IMG/VR virus record: IMGVR_UViG_3300029450_000074
DNA length: 16,401 nt
Strand: one strand, 5' to 3'
DNA from: a virus
Taxonomy: Duplodnaviria; Heunggongvirae; Uroviricota; Caudoviricetes
This document shows, piece by piece, positions 1,586 through 11,608 of the stretch (its first letter is position 1; every line of letters begins with the position of its first letter). The position numbers were made by a program, and so were the translations under genes. A model generated the notes under the pieces. That model made no database searches, was not told where the DNA came from, and worked only from the letters and a program-made list of their open reading frames with translations.

Positions 1586-3352
1586 ATGAACACCACACTG
1601 ACACCCGCAGATCTCGATCCCCGTCGGCAGGCCATGCTGCTGTACTTTCAGGGATACCGCGTAGCCCGCATTGCTGAAATGCTGGGCGAGAAAGTTGCAA
1701 CCGTTCACAGCTGGAAAAAACGCGACAAGTGGGGTGACTATGGGCCGCTGGATCAGATGCAGCTCACCACCGCCGCACGCTACTGCCAGCTCATTATGAA
1801 GGAGCACAAAGAAGGGAAAGATTTCAAAGAGATTGACCTGCTGGCGCGCCAGTCTGAGCGCCACGCGCGGATCGGCAAGTTTAACAATGGCGGCAACGAA
1901 TCCGACTTAAACCCTAACGTCGCCAACCGCAACAAAGGCCCACGCCGTCAGCCGGAAAAGAATGTTTTCACCGATGAGCAGATTGAGAAGCTGGAAGAAA
2001 TCTTCCATTCCTCCATGTTCAACTACCAGCGCCACTGGTGGGAAGCCGGAAAAACCAACCGCATCCGCAACCTGCTGAAGTCACGCCAGATCGGCGCGAC
2101 CTTCTATTTTGCCCGTGAAGCCCTGATTGACGCCCTGCTTACCGGACGCAACCAGATTTTCCTTTCTGCCAGTAAGGCTCAGGCCCACGTCTTTAAACAA
2201 TACATCATCGACTTCGCCAAAGAAGTCGAGGTGGAGCTAAAAGGCGATCCGATGGTGCTTCCTAATGGGGCCACGCTTTACTTCCTCGGCACCAATGCCC
2301 GCACGGCCCAGAGTTATCACGGCAACCTGTATCTGGATGAATATTTCTGGATACCGAAATTCCAGGAGCTGCGCAAAGTGGCTTCCGGGATGGCTATTCA
2401 CAAGAAATGGCGACAAACCTATTTTTCCACGCCATCCAGCCTGACCCACAGTGCTTATCCGTTCTGGTCCGGTGCGCTGTTCAACCGTGGACGCAACAAA
2501 GCTGACAAGGTGGACATCGACCTGTCCCACAGCAATCTGGCCCCCGGCCTGCTGTGCGCAGACGGGCAATACCGCCAGATAGTCACCGTGGAAGATGCGG
2601 TGCGCGGCGGCTGCAACCTGTTCGACCTTGACCAGTTGCGCATGGAGTACAGCCCGGACGAATACCAGAACCTGCTGATGTGCGAGTTTGTGGACGATCT
2701 CGCGTCCGTGTTTCCGCTCAGCGAGCTGCAGGCGTGCATGGTGGACAGCTGGGAAGTCTGGACCGACTTTCATGCACTGGCCCTTCGCCCGTTTGGCTGG
2801 CGCGAAGTATGGATCGGTTATGACCCGGCAAAAGGTACGCAGAACGGCGACAGTGCCGGATGCGTGGTGGTGGCACCGCCAGCCGTGCCGGGCGGTAAGT
2901 TTCGCATTCTTGAGCGTCACCAGTGGCGCGGGATGGACTTCCGCGCCCAGGCTGACGCCATCAAAAAACTGACCGAACAGTACAACGTGACCTATATCGG
3001 CATCGACTCAACTGGGGTCGGCCACGGGGTTTACGAGAACGTGAAAGCGTTCTTTCCTGCCGTCCGGGAGTTTGTCTACAACCCCAATGTTAAAAACGCC
3101 CTGGTACTCAAGGCCTACGACATTATCAGCCACCGCCGTCTGGAGTTTGACGCCGGACACACCGACATAGCGCAGTCATTCATGGCAATCCGTCGCGCCA
3201 CCACCGCCAGCGGCAACCGCCCGACCTATGAAGCCAGCCGCAGCGAAGAAGCCAGTCACGCCGATCTGGCCTGGGCAACAATGCACGCACTGTTTAACGA
3301 ACCGCTGCAGGGCGAGTCCGCCAATACCAGCAATATTGTGGAGATTTTTTGA
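1586..3352 (+). CDS. P: Terminase ATPase (large) subunit, P2 gpP family
   Basis: 588-aa ORF starting at ATG 1586, diverging from O and immediately followed by the portal gene with a TGATG stop/start overlap; length fits gpP (about 590 aa). Confidence 0.85.
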   Translation: MNTTLTPADLDPRRQAMLLYFQGYRVARIAEMLGEKVATVHSWKKRDKWGDYGPLDQMQLTTAARYCQLIMKEHKEGKDFKEIDLLARQSERHARIGKFNNGGNESDLNPNVANRNKGPRRQPEKNVFTDEQIEKLEEIFHSSMFNYQRHWWEAGKTNRIRNLLKSRQIGATFYFAREALIDALLTGRNQIFLSASKAQAHVFKQYIIDFAKEVEVELKGDPMVLPNGATLYFLGTNARTAQSYHGNLYLDEYFWIPKFQELRKVASGMAIHKKWRQTYFSTPSSLTHSAYPFWSGALFNRGRNKADKVDIDLSHSNLAPGLLCADGQYRQIVTVEDAVRGGCNLFDLDQLRMEYSPDEYQNLLMCEFVDDLASVFPLSELQACMVDSWEVWTDFHALALRPFGWREVWIGYDPAKGTQNGDSAGCVVVAPPAVPGGKFRILERHQWRGMDFRAQADAIKKLTEQYNVTYIGIDSTGVGHGVYENVKAFFPAVREFVYNPNVKNALVLKAYDIISHRRLEFDAGHTDIAQSFMAIRRATTASGNRPTYEASRSEEASHADLAWATMHALFNEPLQGESANTSNIVEIF

Positions 3353-4386
3353 TGGGAAAGAGTAAGAAGAACCGCGCTTCGGCGACGAAACAGATCCAGC
3401 TTAAAAGTCAAACTACAGCCGAAGCATTCAGCTTCGGCGATCCCGTTCCTGTTCTGGACCGCCGAGAACTGCTGGACTATGTGGAATGCGTACAGACAGA
3501 TCGCTGGTATGAGCCGCCAGTAAGCTTTGACGGACTGGCGCGCACCTTCCGCGCTGCCGTGCATCACAGTTCACCAATTGCGGTGAAATGCAACATACTG
3601 ACCAGTACCTACATCCCTCACCCGCTGCTCAGCCAGCAGGCTTTTTCACGTTTTGTGCAGGACTATCTGGTATTTGGTAACGCCTATCTGGAGAAACGCA
3701 CGAACCGCTTCGGTGAAGTTATCGCCCTTGAGCCTGCTCTGGCAAAATATACCCGACGCGGGTTAGACCTGGATACCTACTGGTTTGTGCAATACGGTAT
3801 GACAACCCAGCCGTATCAGTTCACGAAAGGCAGCATTTTTCATCTGATGGAACCGGATATTAATCAGGAGATCTACGGCCTGCCCGGCTATCTTTCTGCC
3901 ATCCCATCCGCTTTGCTCAACGAGTCCGCCACGCTGTTCCGCCGGAAGTATTACATTAACGGTAGTCATGCAGGCTTCATCATGTACATGACCGATGCCG
4001 CGCAGAACCAGGAGGATGTGAACAACCTCCGCAATGCGATGAAAAGCGCCAAAGGACCGGGTAACTTCCGCAACCTGTTTATGTACTCGCCTAACGGCAA
4101 AAAGGATGGGCTTCAGATCATTCCTCTGTCAGAAGTCGCGGCGAAGGATGAGTTTCTAAACATCAAGAACGTGAGCCGGGATGACATGATGGCGGCGCAT
4201 CGTGTGCCACCGCAAATGATGGGGATTATGCCTAATAATGTTGGGGGATTTGGGGATGTGGAGAAGGCCAGCCGCGTATTCGTTCGTAATGAACTTATTC
4301 CGCTTCAGAGACGCTTTGAGGAGCTTAATAAATGGCTGGATAAAAACGCGATAGGGTTCACAAATTACGAATTATCGCTAGATTAG
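3352..4386 (+). CDS. Q: Portal (capsid portal/vertex) protein, P2 gpQ family
   Basis: ATG at 3352 overlaps the P stop (TGATG); GGAG 8 nt upstream; 344 aa as expected for gpQ. The ORF track start at 3349 is a TTG. Confidence 0.85.
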   Translation: MGKSKKNRASATKQIQLKSQTTAEAFSFGDPVPVLDRRELLDYVECVQTDRWYEPPVSFDGLARTFRAAVHHSSPIAVKCNILTSTYIPHPLLSQQAFSRFVQDYLVFGNAYLEKRTNRFGEVIALEPALAKYTRRGLDLDTYWFVQYGMTTQPYQFTKGSIFHLMEPDINQEIYGLPGYLSAIPSALLNESATLFRRKYYINGSHAGFIMYMTDAAQNQEDVNNLRNAMKSAKGPGNFRNLFMYSPNGKKDGLQIIPLSEVAAKDEFLNIKNVSRDDMMAAHRVPPQMMGIMPNNVGGFGDVEKASRVFVRNELIPLQRRFEELNKWLDKNAIGFTNYELSLD

Positions 4387-4446: not shown

Positions 4447-5097
4447 ATGGACATCACACTGAATCTAAAAATGAAAAAGGATAAAGCATTAGAATTTTAC
4501 GAAAAACTTTATTTCTCAGAAATTGAGAATAAAGACAAGATACATACTCGCGCTCAAGCCGAATTCGGATTAGTTGTCATTACCGCAACTATACTCACTT
4601 ATCTCGCCAAAAACACATCTTATGAATCCCACCCAAGGCTAGCTTGCCTAGTATTTTTATGTACCGCAATTTCATTTGGCTTAGTTCTTGTATCATCAAT
4701 TCTGTTGAAACAAGTCATATGGGGAAATGAATTTAAGTATTGCCCTGCACCTAAAGCATTGCATGATTATCACATAGATCTGATTAGTTACGAAGTGAAA
4801 TATAAAAAATATTGCGATGACAATGGACTTACATACGATGAAAGTTATAACCCTGATAATAAACTTTGGGAGTTTATTCATCAAGAAATCAGAGAGTGTG
4901 CTAGCTGGAACAGTAATATCAATGAGGAACGTTCCAGTAAACTATTTGAGTCAACAAAGTATCTTGTCTGGTCATGGATTCCAATTATCGCAGCAGTAGT
5001 CATATTTCTTTTAGCTGATTTAGATGCAGCATCACCGCGGAAAAATAACGCCCCTAACTATTTGATAATACCTATTGAAAATGTCAGGAGAACTTAA
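4447..5097 (+). CDS. Hypothetical membrane protein (about 3 predicted TM helices), AT-rich accessory gene
   Basis: 216-aa ORF in visibly AT-rich DNA. Hydrophobic segments FGLVVITATILTYLA, LACLVFLCTAISFGLVLVSSILL and LVWSWIPIIAAVVIFLLADL flank a soluble Cys-containing segment of about 85 aa. No clear SD at the 4447 ATG. No family recognised. Confidence 0.5.
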   Translation: MDITLNLKMKKDKALEFYEKLYFSEIENKDKIHTRAQAEFGLVVITATILTYLAKNTSYESHPRLACLVFLCTAISFGLVLVSSILLKQVIWGNEFKYCPAPKALHDYHIDLISYEVKYKKYCDDNGLTYDESYNPDNKLWEFIHQEIRECASWNSNINEERSSKLFESTKYLVWSWIPIIAAVVIFLLADLDAASPRKNNAPNYLIIPIENVRRT

Positions 5098-5234
5098 TGA
5101 CCAAACCGTTACCGCCACCACCTCCTCGGCCTACTCCACCCGCAAGAAGGATCGTTATTGAAGATGATTCAAAAGCAAGGCAACTACGAAGAGACAGAAA
5201 GGACGATAAAAATGACCGAACACAAAAATCCTAA
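5097..5234 (+). CDS. Polyproline micro-ORF 1 (45 aa): MTKPLPPPPPRPTPPARRIVIEDDSKARQLRRDRKDDKNDRTQKS
   Basis: ATG overlaps the stop of the membrane-protein gene (TAATG at 5095-5099); AGGAG at 5086-5090, 6 nt upstream. Hand-translated; below the ORF-track length cutoff. Confidence 0.35.
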   Translation: MTKPLPPPPPRPTPPARRIVIEDDSKARQLRRDRKDDKNDRTQKS

Positions 5235-5349
5235 AAAAAATGAAGCACCACCACCACCACCACCACCTAAACCGCCAATCACTCGGTTAGTTAGAGAAAG
5301 CTATGGCAATGATCCAAAAAATAGGAAAAATAAAGATGAGCAAAAATGA
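5212..5349 (+). CDS. Polyproline micro-ORF 2 (45 aa): MTEHKNPKKNEAPPPPPPPKPPITRLVRESYGNDPKNRKNKDEQK
   Basis: Internal ATG of track ORF 5158-5349; starts 23 nt before the micro-ORF 1 stop in the +1 frame; AAGGA-like SD about 8 nt upstream; reads through an A8 run at 5233-5240. Confidence 0.35.
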   Translation: MTEHKNPKKNEAPPPPPPPKPPITRLVRESYGNDPKNRKNKDEQK

Positions 5350-5443
5350 GAAATCTAATTTACCGCCGCCGCCACCACCCAGCAAGCCGCCTACCCGCCA
5401 AGTATTCGATCACGATGATACGAAGAAGAAATCAAAAAGATAA
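5336..5443 (+). CDS. Polyproline micro-ORF 3 (35 aa): MSKNEKSNLPPPPPPSKPPTRQVFDHDDTKKKSKR
   Basis: ATG at 5336 overlaps the end of micro-ORF 2 by 14 nt, again shifted +1; AGGA about 10 nt upstream. Hand-translated. Confidence 0.3.
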   Translation: MSKNEKSNLPPPPPPSKPPTRQVFDHDDTKKKSKR

Positions 5444-5476
5444 GTAGGTTAAGAAAGTCATACAGGTTATATATTC

Positions 5477-5520
5477 GAAGCGCCTAGTAACATTCTGCTA
5501 GGCGCTTCTTATTGTATTCA
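5477..5520 (+). terminator. Strong stem-loop, probable terminator closing the membrane-protein/micro-ORF unit
   Basis: Perfect 11-bp stem GAAGCGCCTAG (5477-5487) / CTAGGCGCTTC (5498-5508), 10-nt loop, then a T-rich tract ttattgtattcatttt. Confidence 0.5.
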
Positions 5521-5595
5521 TTTTCCCTGACAGCCTCAAGCTAATAACACTCGAAGATCGTCAAAAATTTATTGTACATAACCCTATTGCGCGCG

Positions 5596-5616
5596 CTCGT
5601 ATCCCCGCCACGCCTG
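5596..5616 (-). other. cos-like cohesive-end motif (P2/186-type), candidate packaging site
   Basis: Minus strand reads GGCGTGGCGGGGATACGAGCGCGCGC. The first 13 nt match the start of the 186/P2 19-nt cohesive end as I recall it (GGCG[T/A]GGCGGGGAAAGCA...), followed by a GCGCGC block as in P2. Position between Q and the replication side, and orientation pointing toward Q, fit the P2 left end. Match is from memory. Confidence 0.35.
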
Positions 5617-5737: not shown

Positions 5738-5936
5738 ACTGTCTAAGAGAAGTGAAAGTCCGTATCTGAATGACCACTTGAAAAACGAAACATACAGACT
5801 TACAAAGATGAAGCTCTACTGTGAGCGAGGAACATACATAGTTGCTCTGTAATAGCCAAATTTTAAGCAGGAAATCTCTTTTTTATGACAAAACTATAAA
5901 GAAAAACAGACCGTTTCATCGCTCGATGAAAATATA

Positions 5937-7550
5937 CTACAATACTTTTCTCTCGATGGTATTTTTAATGGTCAACATATCTTTAGGAATACTTTTTTTC
6001 CCCTCTATACGTATGGTAAACACAAAAAGAATAACGGCTGATCTCACAATTTTCATGAGTTGTAAGAGCTGTTTCTCAAACTTTTCTTTCTCAATAAACC
6101 TCACCTCATCAAAAAATCCATAAGAATTATATAAATCAACTAACATGTCTTTCTCATGAATAACTAACAGTTTATGTTCTAAATCATTCCTCCATTCTTT
6201 AAAAAAAGCAAGCTCACCATTTTTATCATTCAAATCCATAGCAATACTAAACAAACCCAGCAATCCTTTATTATTTATTTTATTTATTTTAAGCTTTCTT
6301 TTTTCATCACTAATCCGCCAGAAGTTATGAAAGTATATATGTCCTCTATCTGGTTTTAAATCAAATAATTGACACAGAGCAACTGCTATTTTATCCAAGA
6401 TACCAAAGCAAGCTCTAAATGCAACCCTTAACTTCTCAACATTTTCATACAATATTTCTCCATTATACAATTCAGAATAACATACCTCCGAATCCTCATC
6501 AAAAAACTCACTATCAACCTTATATTCAAAAAACATTTTTCGTGCTAAGGAATACTCAGCTTTAAGTCTATTTAACACCATTTCCATTGGCACTATAAAA
6601 TCACCAAATACACCTTCCTCGGTGGTCGCAATAGTTATATTATCTTTAGATGACGCATAACAATTGCAATATAGCGAATGATCAGACAACATTAGATTAT
6701 TATCTATACAAAACCTCTGGTAGTTTGATAAAGTATCATACTCCTCCTGCGTGAGCCTTTCATCTGTACTTATATCCTCTATGCCATATACACATGATTC
6801 ACTCAATATACTTTCGTTGTGCTTTATTTTTCTTTGAAGAGTAACCTTCCATGAAGGAAAACATTTCCCTGACTTTATTGCACACTCATAACCTCGAATA
6901 ACTTCTTTAATCATTTTATATGTATATGTTGTAGATAATTCATTAAGCAATTCTAATGCCTCAGATCTGTTTACCCACGCCTGAGGAATTGAGTTATCAA
7001 TAGATATTGCTTGTTCATAATAATCCATTGATTCAGATATACGATATTGTTTTTTTAATACATTAGCTAGATTAACTATTAAATCAGGGGGCACCCATCC
7101 ATCTTCTTGTGAAAGTTTAAACGCTTTCCAGTAATTATTTTTTACATCATTCAGCTTAATGAAACTATCAATATCTGCATTGTCATTAGGATCAAAATCA
7201 AGAACTGCGCTCATTCCATTTGCCAAGTTATAGTAATATAAGGATTCTTTCATTATAGTCAGAAATTCATTTTTATTGTTTATAAAGATATTTAAGCCTT
7301 CCTCCGCTATATTTTTTACATTACTAAAACTTCCGATATCAATAAGATTTCCGGCCAAATTAGATAATATAATTATTCTATTTTCTTTGATTGTATTTAT
7401 CTCATCGATACCGTTAAGAATATCCTTTACATTTTTATAGGCAGAATCAAATGAACCTGCATTAATAAGATCATCTACGAACCCCATTTTTGAAACAACA
7501 TAGTTGATATCCNNNNNNNNNNNNNNNNNNNNNNAAGCTAATAATACCAA
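5937..7550 (-). CDS. Hypothetical 537-aa protein, AT-rich cargo gene; candidate anti-phage/abortive-infection protein with a C-terminal HEPN-like R-x4-H motif
   Basis: Long minus-strand ORF in strongly AT-rich DNA between cos and the tum/A module. C-terminal WRNDLEHKLLVIH contains R-N-D-L-E-H (codons verified at 6174-6191). No Walker A seen. N-terminus uncertain: track start is a TTG at 7550, an N-run (7513-7534) lies in the first codons, and the first ATG after it is at 7487. Confidence 0.6.
   Translation of the reverse strand: MVLLAXXXXXXXXDINYVVSKMGFVDDLINAGSFDSAYKNVKDILNGIDEINTIKENRIIILSNLAGNLIDIGSFSNVKNIAEEGLNIFINNKNEFLTIMKESLYYYNLANGMSAVLDFDPNDNADIDSFIKLNDVKNNYWKAFKLSQEDGWVPPDLIVNLANVLKKQYRISESMDYYEQAISIDNSIPQAWVNRSEALELLNELSTTYTYKMIKEVIRGYECAIKSGKCFPSWKVTLQRKIKHNESILSESCVYGIEDISTDERLTQEEYDTLSNYQRFCIDNNLMLSDHSLYCNCYASSKDNITIATTEEGVFGDFIVPMEMVLNRLKAEYSLARKMFFEYKVDSEFFDEDSEVCYSELYNGEILYENVEKLRVAFRACFGILDKIAVALCQLFDLKPDRGHIYFHNFWRISDEKRKLKINKINNKGLLGLFSIAMDLNDKNGELAFFKEWRNDLEHKLLVIHEKDMLVDLYNSYGFFDEVRFIEKEKFEKQLLQLMKIVRSAVILFVFTIRIEGKKSIPKDMLTIKNTIERKVL
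7513..7534. other. N-run (22 nt) inside the 5' end of the 537-aa cargo ORF
   Basis: Literal n characters in the sequence. Confidence 1.
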
Positions 7551-7603
7551 TCATTATATGGATGAGATCAATATAGAACATGCCATCTCCGGCAAAAATC
7601 GTA

Positions 7604-7774
7604 CTACATCAGACCAGTGCCCTTCAAATAATATAAATTGAACTTAGATACTTCTGCTTCAACCAGTGTGTTAAATCCATCGCTTGAACTCAGAACAAAA
7701 AGCGGACGATCACTTATCAAAATGGCCGTCCACCTAACGCCTCGTTTCACTCGTTGCCCAAAATAGTCCCCCAT
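7604..7774 (-). CDS. Small hypothetical ORF (56 aa) downstream of the DinI-like gene
   Basis: ATG at 7772-7774 preceded by AAGAGGA about 10 nt upstream; could be a distal gene of the tum operon. No recognisable motif. Confidence 0.25.
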   Translation of the reverse strand: MGDYFGQRVKRGVRWTAILISDRPLFVLSSSDGFNTLVEAEVSKFNLYYLKGTGLM

Positions 7775-7804
7775 CAGAATGAATCCTCTTGGGGGCAACG
7801 TTTC

Positions 7805-8038
7805 TTAATGCAGCCAGCTGTCGTCTTCCCACACCTTCTGCATAATTTTCATCACTTGCTTCCTTTCTTCGTCCAGTTGCAGTCCGGTCAGTTCCACACC
7901 GTTAGAGCTACCTTTGCGAATGCGAATTACCGTTTTGGGATACAGGGGGCGCAGATTGCGGTAAAGCTCGGATTCAAGGGCGTCCAGGGTAGACTGGCTA
8001 ATCTTCTGCTCTTTATCGATCATTATTTCAATGCGCAT
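7805..8038 (-). CDS. DinI-like protein (Tum-type antirepressor C-terminal domain / DinI family)
   Basis: 77-aa product MRIEIMIDKEQKISQSTLDALESELYRNLRPLYPKTVIRIRKGSSNGVELTGLQLDEERKQVMKIMQKVWEDDSWLH resembles E. coli DinI as I recall it (MRIEV...DALAGEL...ETWESADDW). ATG at 8036-8038 with GAGGTG 6 nt upstream; a TGA at 8114-8116 blocks the longer track ORF. Confidence 0.6.
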   Translation of the reverse strand: MRIEIMIDKEQKISQSTLDALESELYRNLRPLYPKTVIRIRKGSSNGVELTGLQLDEERKQVMKIMQKVWEDDSWLH

Positions 8039-8048
8039 AAAAGTCACC

Positions 8049-8240
8049 TCAGCTGATGACATCCATTGAGCGGTTGTATTCGTGGGTTCTGATTTTTGCC
8101 ATGAGTTCATCTGTCAGTTCAGNNNNNNNNNNCTGCAGGGCCAGCCCCTTCTCTTCATCACTACACTCACTAGCCGCTACAAGCTTAAGAAAAAAATCAA
8201 TGCGCTGGAGCTTCAAAGACTCCAAAAAATAGTCCTGCAT
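8049..8240 (-). CDS. Small ORF preceding the DinI-like gene (possible N-terminal part of a Tum-like protein); interrupted by N-run 8123-8132
   Basis: ATG at 8238-8240 with a strong AGGAGG SD; sits about 45 nt downstream of a LexA box. Combined length with the DinI-like ORF is about 145 aa; 186 Tum is about 146 aa (from memory). Confidence 0.4.
   Translation of the reverse strand: MQDYFLESLKLQRIDFFLKLVAASECSDEEKGLALQXXXXELTDELMAKIRTHEYNRSMDVIS
8123..8132. other. N-run (10 nt) inside the tum-like small ORF
   Basis: Literal n characters in the sequence. Confidence 1.
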
Positions 8241-8393: not shown

Positions 8394-10771
8394 TTAATAC
8401 AGGTTCCGCCACTTATCATCTTCCTGCAAACGCTGGTTCCGATAGAAAATACGCAGGCCTGCTCCTGACGGAATGCTGCCGCCGCGAAGGAGTAAATCGA
8501 CCTCTTTCTCGCTGCCATCAAATCCTCTGGACTTCAGTTCATAGACGAGCTGCTGTCGCTGATGATCTGTAATTCGCTGTTTGTAGTCTCTACGCCGTTT
8601 CGGTTTCACCAGGCGTAACCTTGCAGCCAGTTCCCGGCGCTCTTTTTTGTTCATATTGTGCAGGTAATCGTGCAATTCCTTGTCATCCATGCGGGTGATA
8701 TCCGTTCTGGTATCCCCATCAGCTGATTTGTCTTTCCCTTGTTGGTACAAATTTTCAGCAAGGGGACAGTTATTGCCACGAGTCCAAGGGGCGCAAGCGC
8801 CCTGATCGGCTGCCGCCTCCTGAACGTCAACGGCCTTACGAACCATTTTCCACTTCACTGCATGAGTGCAGATCTTGCCCTCTGCAATGGGTGACCAGAT
8901 GCCATAAATACGAATACCGTGATCGCCATAGGCGGTTGGCTCTTCGTTGATTTCATAAGCGGTTCTGATGAGGTGATATTTGCGGGGAACCAGTACGCCG
9001 CCCTGCTTCATGATGTAGGTGGCAAAACAACCAGCATCAGCAGCAGCCAGAATGGCATCAAGACGCGGGTTATCCAGTACCGGCGCACCTGCTTTTTTGT
9101 CACCCTGTTGCCTTGCCGCCTGACCAGCCAGCAAGCGAAGTTCACGGTAAGCCTGACGTCCCGGAATACCAAAGAAGCGGAATTGCTGAACACGATGCAG
9201 AGACGCCCAGGCATTAACGTATTCAGCGTTATCACGCAGGGATTTACCCGTTTCCTTGCTGATCTCGCCAGCCAGACCACGCCCGTCAATGTTCTTACTG
9301 ATGTATTTCGCGATGTAGCTTGTCGGCGTTCCTTTGCGCGGGTTTATCAGCTCAGATTTAAAGCGTGGACCAGTGTTATTACCCAGTTCCTCGCGGTCTT
9401 CACGGATGGCAAACTTACGCAACAATGCAGTAATGGCGCGGCGGTCTTTTTTGCGCATGAAACACAACAGGTGCCAGTGAACTGTACCGTCATGATGCGG
9501 CTCAGCCACCCGCACGCCATACCAGCGCAACTCGGCTTTGTGCATCGCCTTACGAAATGCAGCAAACATGCCGACCAGATAATCGCTGCTTTGTCTTACC
9601 GTCGCATTTGTCCAGGTTGGGTTTGGTCTGCCGTTATTGAGCGTGGAATGGAAACGTGACGGACAGGTAATGGTGTAGAAAACGGCGCAGTCACCGCGCA
9701 TTTCCGCGATAAGCTCCAGACCTTTAACACAGGCCATCATCTCATTGCGGCGGTGCGCCGGGTTGCTGCTGCTGGCGTTTACCACGTCTTCCATNNNNNN
9801 NNNNNNNNNNNNNCCTCTTCGTTCACCAGTTCATGAGAACGGAAAAACTCCAGTGACTTGCGGCGCTGCTCACGTTTATGCATCACGGCTTCATAGCTGA
9901 CATAGGGAGATGCTTTTTTGCTGACCAGGCAGACAGCACGCAACTGCTCTTCCCGCCATTCGCAACGCATCTTCCATAATTTCCGGTACCACCAGTCAGC
10001 GCACAACATACGCGCCAGCGAACCCGGAATGAGTTCATAGGGCACGGGTTTACGGCGGTTTCTTTTCCGGCGGAGTTGCTCAAACGCAGGCGGGATGACA
10101 TCCAGACGCAGGGTTTCCGCTGCCACCTTTTCCCATGTCTTGCGGATTTCTTCTGGCTTAACGTCATCGGTGACATACAAATCGCCACAAGCTGCATCAA
10201 GGCACATGCTCATATGCGCAGCTACCAGGGTGGACAGGCGTTTCACCTGATCCTGACTCATTTCAGGCAGGATCAGCAGGCCGTCCAGCCCTACATGGCT
10301 TGCCATAAAGCGAAAAGAAGTGGATAGCTGACAGTCGCGTACATGCTCCAGCCGTTCCAGACATGGCTTAATCGTCTCACGCAAATAGCGGGAATAAGCC
10401 TTTGGCCTGCCCAGGCTGCTGAAGTATTCAATACGTTGCATCAGTGGCTTGCTGATATGGGAAGGCTGGGCATTGACGTCCGCCAGAATGACCATATCTG
10501 GATTAAAACGCTGCTGCTCATGCGCCAGCTTTGCCCGACTAATGAGCTTATCCTGCTCCATTTCGCGCTGGACAGGATCACGGGATTCATTAAAGAAATA
10601 ACGCTCCCAGACCTGATCACTCAGTGCCTCGCGGCGCAGCTGTTCCTGCTCGTTATCGGCAGCGTACAGAGCGATCAGGTTTGAAAGCGCAGAAACTGAA
10701 GATTGCTCTTCTGTCTCTACGTAAGGATTGATTGCTTTTTTCTCAGCATTCCAGGAATAGCTGTAGTTCAT
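8394..10771 (-). CDS. A: Replication initiation protein, P2 gpA family (HUH rolling-circle endonuclease); reading frame interrupted at N-run 9795-9813
   Basis: Two adjacent minus-strand track ORFs (9779-10822 and 8394-9794). The downstream part carries HUH motif [10 protein letters not shown] and tandem-tyrosine motif YIAKYISK. Likely start is ATG 10771 (GGAGA SD) rather than the TTG at 10822. The two parts are in different frames across the 19-nt N-run. Confidence 0.75.
9795..9813. other. N-run (19 nt) inside replication gene A
   Basis: Literal n characters in the sequence. Confidence 1.
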
Positions 10772-10849
10772 TACGCAATCTCCAGTTCGAGCTGTGAAGG
10801 CTGCAAACCATTCGACAGCCAATCAGAAACTGAAGGTGGGCGAACAGCT

Positions 10850-11608
10850 TCAATTGCACCTTTTAAAATTGCGCAACGGTTTTTCAGAATGACAGCTTTC
10901 AGCTCCTTTTCCGTCANNNNNNNNNNNNNNNNNNNNNTCAGCCTCCTGAATAGCCCGCGTCAGCTCAGGATATTTGCTATTAAATTTGGGGACATTGCAG
11001 GCAAGATTTGTACTGTCGGCAGTCGCCAGTGGGTAATTTCCCAACACACGACCGTCAAGCATGCGCAAACCATGAACAGCTGTTTTGAAATTGTGTCGGC
11101 AATAAATTGCTTCAAAAGCGTCCTGCATACGACGATGCCAGTGCGCAGTTCTGATAGCCGCATATTCACCAGACGATCCAAAGCAGACACGAGGCCATTC
11201 ACGACATAGCTCGATAAGCCGATCGATTGACTCGTGCAGATGCCAGACGGGAGTTGCCTTCCCGTAGAACATTTTCGGAACTTCGTTTATCAGGGCATCA
11301 TTGTCACGTTCACCTCCGTCCACAACATCAGGAATGACAAAAAAAGCGACCTTAGGATGGTGGTAATAGTTCAGGAGCCATTTATAAAAATCACTCCAGT
11401 TAATTTTTAGCCCACGCACCCATGCAGAAAATGCGCCGTTATCAATGCCGACGACCTGAGCGTGCTGAATGGACGCCGCAATCTGATCTGGTCGTACATA
11501 GGAGACGAAAGCGCCAGCTCCGCTCACCGCAATACGATGAACGTCGCCAGCACTTCCCCAGACAGGCGTCCCATGGAAATGATGAATTCCGTGGTGCATT
11601 TCTTTCAC
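10850..11608 (-). CDS. Hypothetical 252-aa protein translationally coupled to the Dam methyltransferase; family unassigned
   Basis: Start (GTG 11606-11608 or ATG 11597-11599) overlaps or abuts the Dam stop (TGA 11605-11607). Motifs GIDNGAFSAW and VIPDVVDGG have a weak, unverified resemblance to TGT/DpdA-type signatures; no zinc-binding Cys cluster. N-run 10917-10937 lies near the C-terminus. Confidence 0.45.
   Translation of the reverse strand: MKEMHHGIHHFHGTPVWGSAGDVHRIAVSGAGAFVSYVRPDQIAASIQHAQVVGIDNGAFSAWVRGLKINWSDFYKWLLNYYHHPKVAFFVIPDVVDGGERDNDALINEVPKMFYGKATPVWHLHESIDRLIELCREWPRVCFGSSGEYAAIRTAHWHRRMQDAFEAIYCRHNFKTAVHGLRMLDGRVLGNYPLATADSTNLACNVPKFNSKYPELTRAIQEAXXXXXXXXDGKGAESCHSEKPLRNFKRCN
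10917..10937. other. N-run (21 nt) inside the Dam-coupled 252-aa ORF
   Basis: Literal n characters in the sequence. Confidence 1.

Follow-up and report, generated by a model that had tools for sequence, protein, structure and literature searches.

The DNA analyzed here, IMG/VR virus record IMGVR_UViG_3300029450_000074 (16,401 nucleotides, called the window below), is a P2-like (Peduoviridae) prophage whose orientation is reversed relative to the P2 map. On its minus strand, at 5937-7514, it carries a gene for a 525-residue protein that joins an N-terminal TPR-like domain to a C-terminal half of predicted HEPN type; we refer to it as the HEPN gene. This gene is horizontally acquired, low-G+C cargo and stands alone in the cos-proximal hotspot of P2. 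Its product is probably an RNase. By analogy with known HEPN proteins, we lean toward a reading in which the gene is a self-contained candidate for anti-phage abortive infection, acting as a single polypeptide and carried as cargo by the prophage.

The HEPN gene is intact and begins at a masked ATG

The original prediction described a 537-amino-acid open reading frame (ORF) in strongly AT-rich DNA among phage genes of normal G+C content. The skew is as described: the HEPN gene has 30.6% G+C, versus 52.3% for gene A and 54.6% for genes P and Q. The ORF is likewise real and intact, but its start was misplaced. The ORF list gives 5937..7550 on the minus strand, 537 amino acids from a TTG start, and a run of Ns masks bases 7513-7534, at the 5' end of the gene. 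What lies beneath the mask? In the 98%-identical locus of E. coli ECONIH5, the corresponding stretch is AGTTTAAAGAGGATTGAATG, which holds, in order, two in-frame stop codons, the Shine-Dalgarno sequence AAAGAGGA, a short spacer and the ATG from which MDINYVVSK is read. The mask thus covers the ribosome-binding site together with the A and T of the ATG. In the NCBI annotation, the ECONIH5 gene begins at this same ATG.

Because the unmasked ECONIH5 locus shows stop codons, ribosome-binding site and ATG where the window has Ns, we take 5937-7514 as the true coding sequence. We conclude that the HEPN gene is intact, with 525 codons from MDINYVVSK to a TAG stop, and that the first 12 codons of the 537-amino-acid ORF are an artifact of reading through the mask. 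A protein of 525 amino acids (P0001) is 99% identical to the window protein, and 525 is the length of nearly all full-length homologs. The gene and its parts are as follows.

5937..7514, minus strand: coding sequence of the TPR-like and LA2681-HEPN protein (ORF list, translation, unmasked E. coli locus, P0001, NCBI annotation)
7513..7534: masked N-run over the ribosome-binding site and the first two bases of the start codon (comparison with the E. coli homolog)
6792..7514, minus strand: N-terminal all-helical TPR-like domain, residues 1-241 (Pfam, profile, AlphaFold2, Foldseek)
6597..6791, minus strand: linker region, residues 242-306 (invariant columns in alignment A1)
5994..6596, minus strand: LA2681-type HEPN domain, residues 307-507, predicted metal-independent RNase effector (PF18733)
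6174..6191, minus strand: predicted catalytic motif R442-N-D-L-E-H447 (invariance in 42 homologs, only conserved Rx4-6H)

The C terminus of the window protein differs from that of the ECONIH5 homolog. An A-run at about 5993-5999 (in GGGGAAAAAAAGT) has seven As in the window versus six in ECONIH5 (L001, about 6425). The shorter run shifts the frame, so that the last 19 residues are replaced by 7 and the protein has 513 amino acids, versus 525. The C terminus found in the window is the version conserved across genera.

A predicted HEPN domain with an invariant RNxxEH motif

The Pfam model PF18733 (HEPN_LA2681, LA2681-like HEPN) matches residues ~309-504 with E=1.7e-38 and a score of 132.5 bits (gathering cutoff 27), and the match spans positions 9-204 of the 204 in the model. 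On the strength of its sequence, the window protein is a direct member of this family. The motif WRNDLEHKLLVIH lies at nucleotides 6174-6191; its R442 and H447 in the 525-residue protein are R454 and H459 in the longer ORF. Across an alignment of 42 full-length homologs, which range from Enterobacteriaceae to Pseudomonas, Vibrio and Polaromonas, the R, N, E and H of RNDLEH are invariant down to 36% identity, and no other Rx4-6H in the protein is conserved. According to the HEPN survey of Anantharaman et al. 2013 (PMC3710099), R is typically followed by N, D or H, and the motif ends helix 3. In our structure model, RNDLEH is at the C-terminal end of the helix preceding the last long helix, and N follows R; this modeled placement agrees with the description of HEPN helix 3.

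The AlphaFold2 model of the full-length protein (predicted local distance difference test [pLDDT] 86.6, predicted template modeling score [pTM] 0.89) is all-helical except for one small hairpin. As evidence for a HEPN fold, modeling is compatible but non-specific: a separate model of residues 245-524 reaches a pLDDT of 85, and unrelated helix bundles score equally high. Foldseek with the HEPN domain gave no significant match, and a profile search of solved structures matched no HEPN chain by sequence. The HEPN assignment therefore rests mainly on the profile and the motif, and on these the prediction of a C-terminal HEPN-type domain with an intact RNxxEH motif holds. The HEPN-like R-x4-H noticed earlier in the C terminus is thus present and conserved, and the earlier remark that the protein lacks a Walker A motif is correct as well ([AG]x4GK[ST] is absent).

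The N-terminal domain consists of 11 helices in the model. Pfam TPR matches fall below threshold, at about residues 145-175 (best 19.5 bits). Within the PDB, a profile built from the 42 homologs matches TPR proteins alone, with E values (summed over repeats) reaching 7.5e-18, the top PDB matches of the full-length model in Foldseek are also TPR proteins, and some homologs carry precomputed Pfam TPR matches. This is the more variable half of the protein: identity to distant homologs is 32% in the N-terminal domain versus 50% in the HEPN domain. We propose that the TPR-like half is a sensor or regulatory domain. Since it diverges faster than the HEPN domain, the two make a candidate sensor/effector pairing.

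The linker between them contains an invariant motif, S-x-H-x2-Y-C-x-C-x5-D (LSDHSLYCNCYASSKD; 6645-6689, minus strand), which lies outside the Pfam HEPN model. The invariant columns are S276, H278, Y281, C282, C284 and D290 (alignment A1, 524-residue numbering). The linker is modeled confidently and has little regular secondary structure. Its motif, together with invariant C368, could be a metal-binding or an extra catalytic element.

A hydrophobic stretch at residues 483-501 (nucleotides ~6012-6068; LLQLMKIVRSAVILFVFTI) has a Kyte-Doolittle value of 1.96. Might it be a transmembrane helix? Probably not: these residues form the invariant last core helix of the modeled HEPN bundle (pLDDT about 94) and are more likely buried.

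The protein is already catalogued in a computationally defined family

The LA2681 family is defined only computationally. Table 1 of Anantharaman et al. 2013 (PMC3710099) has it with the remark "Fused to TPR," and NCBI pipeline annotation already gives the family name to close E. coli homologs. The window protein shares with the family the strong profile match, the Rx4H motif and the TPR-fusion architecture, and has no feature that distinguishes it.

The same protein (MDINYVVSKMGFVDD...) at the same locus is system #100, "HEPN_LA2681/RNPP_C," in Table S5B of Rousset et al. 2022. It has 33 occurrences among 18,150 E. coli P2 loci there and bears the remarks "1 TM" and "Likely a RNAse"; residues 483-501 probably explain the former. 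System #100 was not among the systems that Rousset et al. 2022 cloned. Two that were cloned and gave no phenotype, pFR83 ("HEPN-TPR," P4) and pFR103 ("Putative HEPN," P2), were considered as the same protein and rejected (BLASTP E>2). At the family level, the 2026 machine-learning study DefensePredictor counts an LA2681-family protein of E. coli among its predicted novel defense genes. The term "LA2681" is absent throughout its Table S6, and within part 1 of the three parts of that table no phage-protective system corresponds to the window protein. Full-text literature searches for LA2681, PF18733 and TPR-HEPN returned the 2013 classification paper alone.

We conclude that the LA2681 family is named and catalogued, that one member has been flagged by machine learning and that the gene is not new at the level of description. 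The original prediction had been unable to place the protein in a named family and had called it undescribed. Neither statement survives: the profile search gives a confident match to PF18733, named in 2013 and in use at NCBI, the protein itself is in print as system #100, and a family member is in the DefensePredictor list.

The HEPN gene is lone cargo in the P2 hotspot

The gene lies where the original prediction put it, between a cos-like site and the tum/A module. The landmarks are as follows.

1586-3352: terminase gene P
3349-4386: portal gene Q
5596..5614, minus strand: P2-type cos-like site, marker of the hotspot (sequence compared with annotated P2 cosR)
5835..7675: minimal cargo segment, 31% G+C (blastn against L016, L017 and L018)
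7805..8038, minus strand: DinI-like (Tum-type) gene, conserved A-side neighbor of the hotspot (Pfam DinI E=1.3e-22, NCBI annotation of homologous loci)
8394..10822, minus strand: replication endonuclease gene A (ORF list, annotation of homologous loci)

On the minus strand, the cos-like site reads GGCGTGGCGGGGATACGAG, versus GGCGAGGCGGGGAAAGCAC for annotated P2 cosR. A small conserved ORF lies between the DinI-like gene and A, and further early and immunity genes lie beyond A. Gene A appears as two ORFs, split by the N-run 9795-9813.

The limits of the cargo come from blastn of the window against an empty site (L016), a locus with an RNase A-like toxin and immunity gene (L017) and Fels-2 (L018). 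Compared with the empty-site prophage of E. coli strain 639, the insert is 5740-7794; compared with the prophage carrying the RNase A-like toxin and its immunity gene, the gene-specific stretch is 5835-7675. P2-like phages conserve the flanks from about 5587 onward (blastn). Within the whole cargo segment of ~1.8-2.0 kb, the HEPN gene is the one credible gene. Fels-2 has another gene at this position, and P2 itself has old and tin. Rousset et al. 2022 describe this gpA-gpQ cos-proximal locus of E. coli P2 elements as a hotspot rich in anti-phage systems. Hotspot cargo and a single-gene unit, both proposed at the outset, are thus what we find. An upstream 64-amino-acid ORF at 7604-7798 was considered as a partner or antitoxin and rejected: it has no family match, it is unannotated in all homologous loci examined and part of it is common to prophages with different cargo.

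Is the gene a variant of old or tin? It shares with them the hotspot between A and cos and the logic of lysogenic conversion. The HEPN gene, however, runs with DinI and A, toward cos, whereas P2 old-tin (L026 2185-4927) runs from a near-cos promoter toward A. The OLD family is defined by an ABC-type ATPase with Walker A and a TOPRIM nuclease; the window protein has no Walker A and no ATPase or TOPRIM Pfam match, and BLASTP against P2 Old gives E=3.3. For Tin, the best BLASTP E is 0.047 over 51 residues, which in a single pairwise comparison is not meaningful. The gene is therefore neither Old nor Tin, as had been proposed.

The gene is rare in E. coli, and its homologs have no conserved partner

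Among 5,426 complete E. coli genomes, 11 carry the HEPN gene, always with the neighbors seen in the window: the DinI-like gene, a hypothetical protein and the replication endonuclease. Homologs of ~525 amino acids occur at 74-85% identity in Enterobacter, Yersinia, Salmonella, Erwinia and Cronobacter, at 57% in Pantoea, and at about 40% in Pseudomonas, Vibrio, Cellvibrio, Parazoarcus and Polaromonas. Among 1.84 billion cluster representatives searched, 240 match at E<=1e-30, and the LA2681 family comprises about 240 clusters at 50% identity, across Proteobacteria and metagenomes.

We examined 11 neighborhoods of homologs. The homolog was alone every time and the neighbors differed, with no partner gene conserved across the 11 contexts. 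In Cronobacter (L024, L025; gene 6001-7578), a 74% homolog is part of a P4-like satellite, where an Ogr/Delta gene flanks it on one side and the integrase gene on the other. Hence, the same gene moves between P2-like helpers and satellites. An unannotated 451-amino-acid gene then follows the Cronobacter homolog. In Salmonella enterica (L019; gene 6001-7578), an 81% homolog adjoins the Q antiterminator gene of a lambdoid prophage, and a toxin-antitoxin pair, PhD/PIN, lies a few kb from it. The Cellvibrio homolog is on an integrative and conjugative element with AbiE, Fic, a Gp49/HTH pair and ArdA; the Vibrio homolog adjoins Mrr-type and Cap4-type nuclease genes; and the Pseudomonas homolog adjoins a PAAR-Ntox44 toxin and an integrase. 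The Yersinia and Pantoea homologs are near integrases, with an AbiE pair in one locus.

Proposed function and alternatives

For its possible mechanism, the window protein is best compared with HepS of the Gifsy-1 prophage, a solo HEPN abortive-infection protein that stays inactive until a siphophage tail-tip protein switches it on, and that then cuts tRNA anticodon loops and aborts the infection (Sargen et al. 2026, PMC13043305). Both are prophage-borne, single-gene HEPN proteins with no antitoxin partner. They belong to different HEPN families: HepS has fewer than 250 amino acids, its motif is R100-H105 and it has no repeat domain, whereas the window protein has 525 amino acids, 240 of them in the TPR-like domain. 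The Salmonella lambdoid homolog had raised the suspicion that the protein was Gifsy-1 HepS itself, which its size, motif and lack of extra domains rule out. ApeA, AbiD/AbiF/AbiJ/AbiU2 and DS-11 (CBS-HEPN) likewise combine a regulatory or sensor domain with a HEPN RNase in one polypeptide and likewise occur in defense islands and on mobile elements. Their PADLOC models do not match the window protein, however, and its regulatory domain would be TPR-like rather than CBS or the ApeA N-terminal domain.

If HEPN RNases generally, and HepS in particular, are a guide, the protein would be made from the prophage in a resting, auto-inhibited state. Its variable TPR-like domain would bind a phage-made protein or another cue of infection. 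Ligand binding would rearrange or oligomerize the protein and thereby bring two HEPN motifs together in one composite RNase site that needs no metal. The enzyme would then cut an essential RNA, with tRNA anticodon loops or other translation RNAs as the likeliest targets; translation would stop, the infecting phage would fail and the clonal hosts of the prophage would be protected. The sensor function, the oligomerization and the RNA target are what we infer from the analogy. In favor of this reading are the profile match, the invariant motif, the faster divergence of the TPR-like half, and the residence of the gene and several homologs at mobile or defense-rich sites with no conserved partner. 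A broader version is possible, and we offer it tentatively: LA2681 TPR-HEPN proteins might be widespread single-protein, NTPase-free immune receptors, in which the TPR-like domain recognizes a conserved phage protein and allosterically assembles the RNase site, and SxHxxYCxC...D might form a metal site or act as a second element, catalytic or regulatory, unseen in other HEPN families.

Several points weigh against an anti-phage role. No PADLOC, NCBIfam or PHROG model supports one; in PADLOC-DB 2.0 no system model matches, the only hits being a generic TPR model at E=3e-4 and Csx1/Csm6 at E=0.038. The literature searched holds no experimental test of any LA2681-family protein. Rousset et al. 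2022 also found partition systems and cytolethal distending toxin in the P2 hotspot, and among eight additional P2 systems that they cloned, three were active. Four of the 11 homolog contexts are ordinary chromosome, with no visible defense or mobile genes except one resolvase gene. Finally, a sigma-70 consensus scan found no promoter upstream of the HEPN gene start. Because of this, read-through transcription is possible, and the gene may be transcribed from the early operon.

Could an active HEPN RNase instead serve the mobile element, as a fused toxin or addiction module, as a factor against satellites or plasmids, or by tuning RNA at induction? We think this unlikely. It would fit the presence of the gene on elements as different as a P2-like phage, a P4-like satellite, a lambdoid prophage and an integrative and conjugative element, and the toxin-antitoxin pairs that often lie beside homologs (AbiE, Fic/HTH, Gp49/HTH_37, PIN/PhD); HEPN domains are common as toxin modules (PMC3710099), and the P2 hotspot holds non-defense cargo too (Rousset et al. 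2022). Yet none of the 11 contexts has a conserved antitoxin-like partner, and the fast-evolving TPR-like domain suits ligand sensing more than simple addiction. A purely anti-satellite or anti-helper role is disfavored by the occurrence of the gene in both a P2-like phage and a P4-like satellite. Less probable again is a non-catalytic or housekeeping-type protein, a TPR scaffold or RNA-binding protein whose HEPN-like domain binds RNA or nucleotides without cutting. Certain HEPN families are such binders (PMC3710099), several homologs sit among ordinary metabolic or replication genes and Foldseek finds no significant HEPN match. However, non-catalytic HEPN domains characteristically lose Rx4-6H (PMC3710099), whereas the R, N, E and H of this protein stay invariant across deeply diverged homologs. 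The gene is also rare (11/5,426 complete E. coli genomes), patchy, strongly AT-skewed relative to the phage and non-syntenic between genera, which is more typical of an accessory conflict gene than of a housekeeping one.

Across cos, the window has another AT-rich cargo block, in which 4447-5097 encodes a two-transmembrane (2-TM) protein followed by small proline-rich ORFs. Might the HEPN gene be half of a two-part system with these? Both blocks are AT-rich and flank cos, and the 2-TM protein and the HEPN protein are systems #96 and #100 of Rousset Table S5B, with exactly 33 occurrences each. Against this, the blocks assort independently, as in E. coli strain 639, where 2-TM cargo of 99% identity accompanies an empty HEPN site. 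None of the 11 complete E. coli genomes with the HEPN gene has the window's 5400-5580 flank, the gene after the portal gene differs in ECONIH5 and homologs in other genera have no 2-TM cargo neighbor. The HEPN gene and the 2-TM block are also on opposite strands, with cos and a strong terminator between them. We rejected the two-gene system because of the independent assortment, and consider it very improbable.

If the HEPN gene is active as an abortive-infection gene, the LA2681 HEPN family would gain its first assigned function. A compact design of TPR sensor and HEPN effector that works without a STAND ATPase would then join the known single-protein immune sensors, and one P2 hotspot that lacks a recognizable defense system would be filled; a 2026 survey puts at 19% the P2 genomes with no such system in the hotspot. 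The discovery value of the window is modest because the candidate is already in public catalogues and machine-learning prediction lists. The gene is a reasonable and cheap experimental target that would not surprise a specialist.

Other features of the window

The second cargo block lies between portal Q and cos, at 4447-5443 on the plus strand, and has 38% G+C. Its first gene, 4447-5097, encodes a 216-amino-acid protein with predicted membrane helices and no match in Pfam or PADLOC; this is system #96 ("2 TM," 33 occurrences) in Table S5B of Rousset et al. 2022. The window contains four N-runs in all, at 7513-7534, 8123-8132, 9795-9813 and 10917-10937. Beside the second block, at 5477-5508, is a terminator-like hairpin. 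After the 216-amino-acid gene come three short consecutive ORFs of 45, 63 and 46 amino acids, each with a run of 5-7 prolines and then a basic tail.

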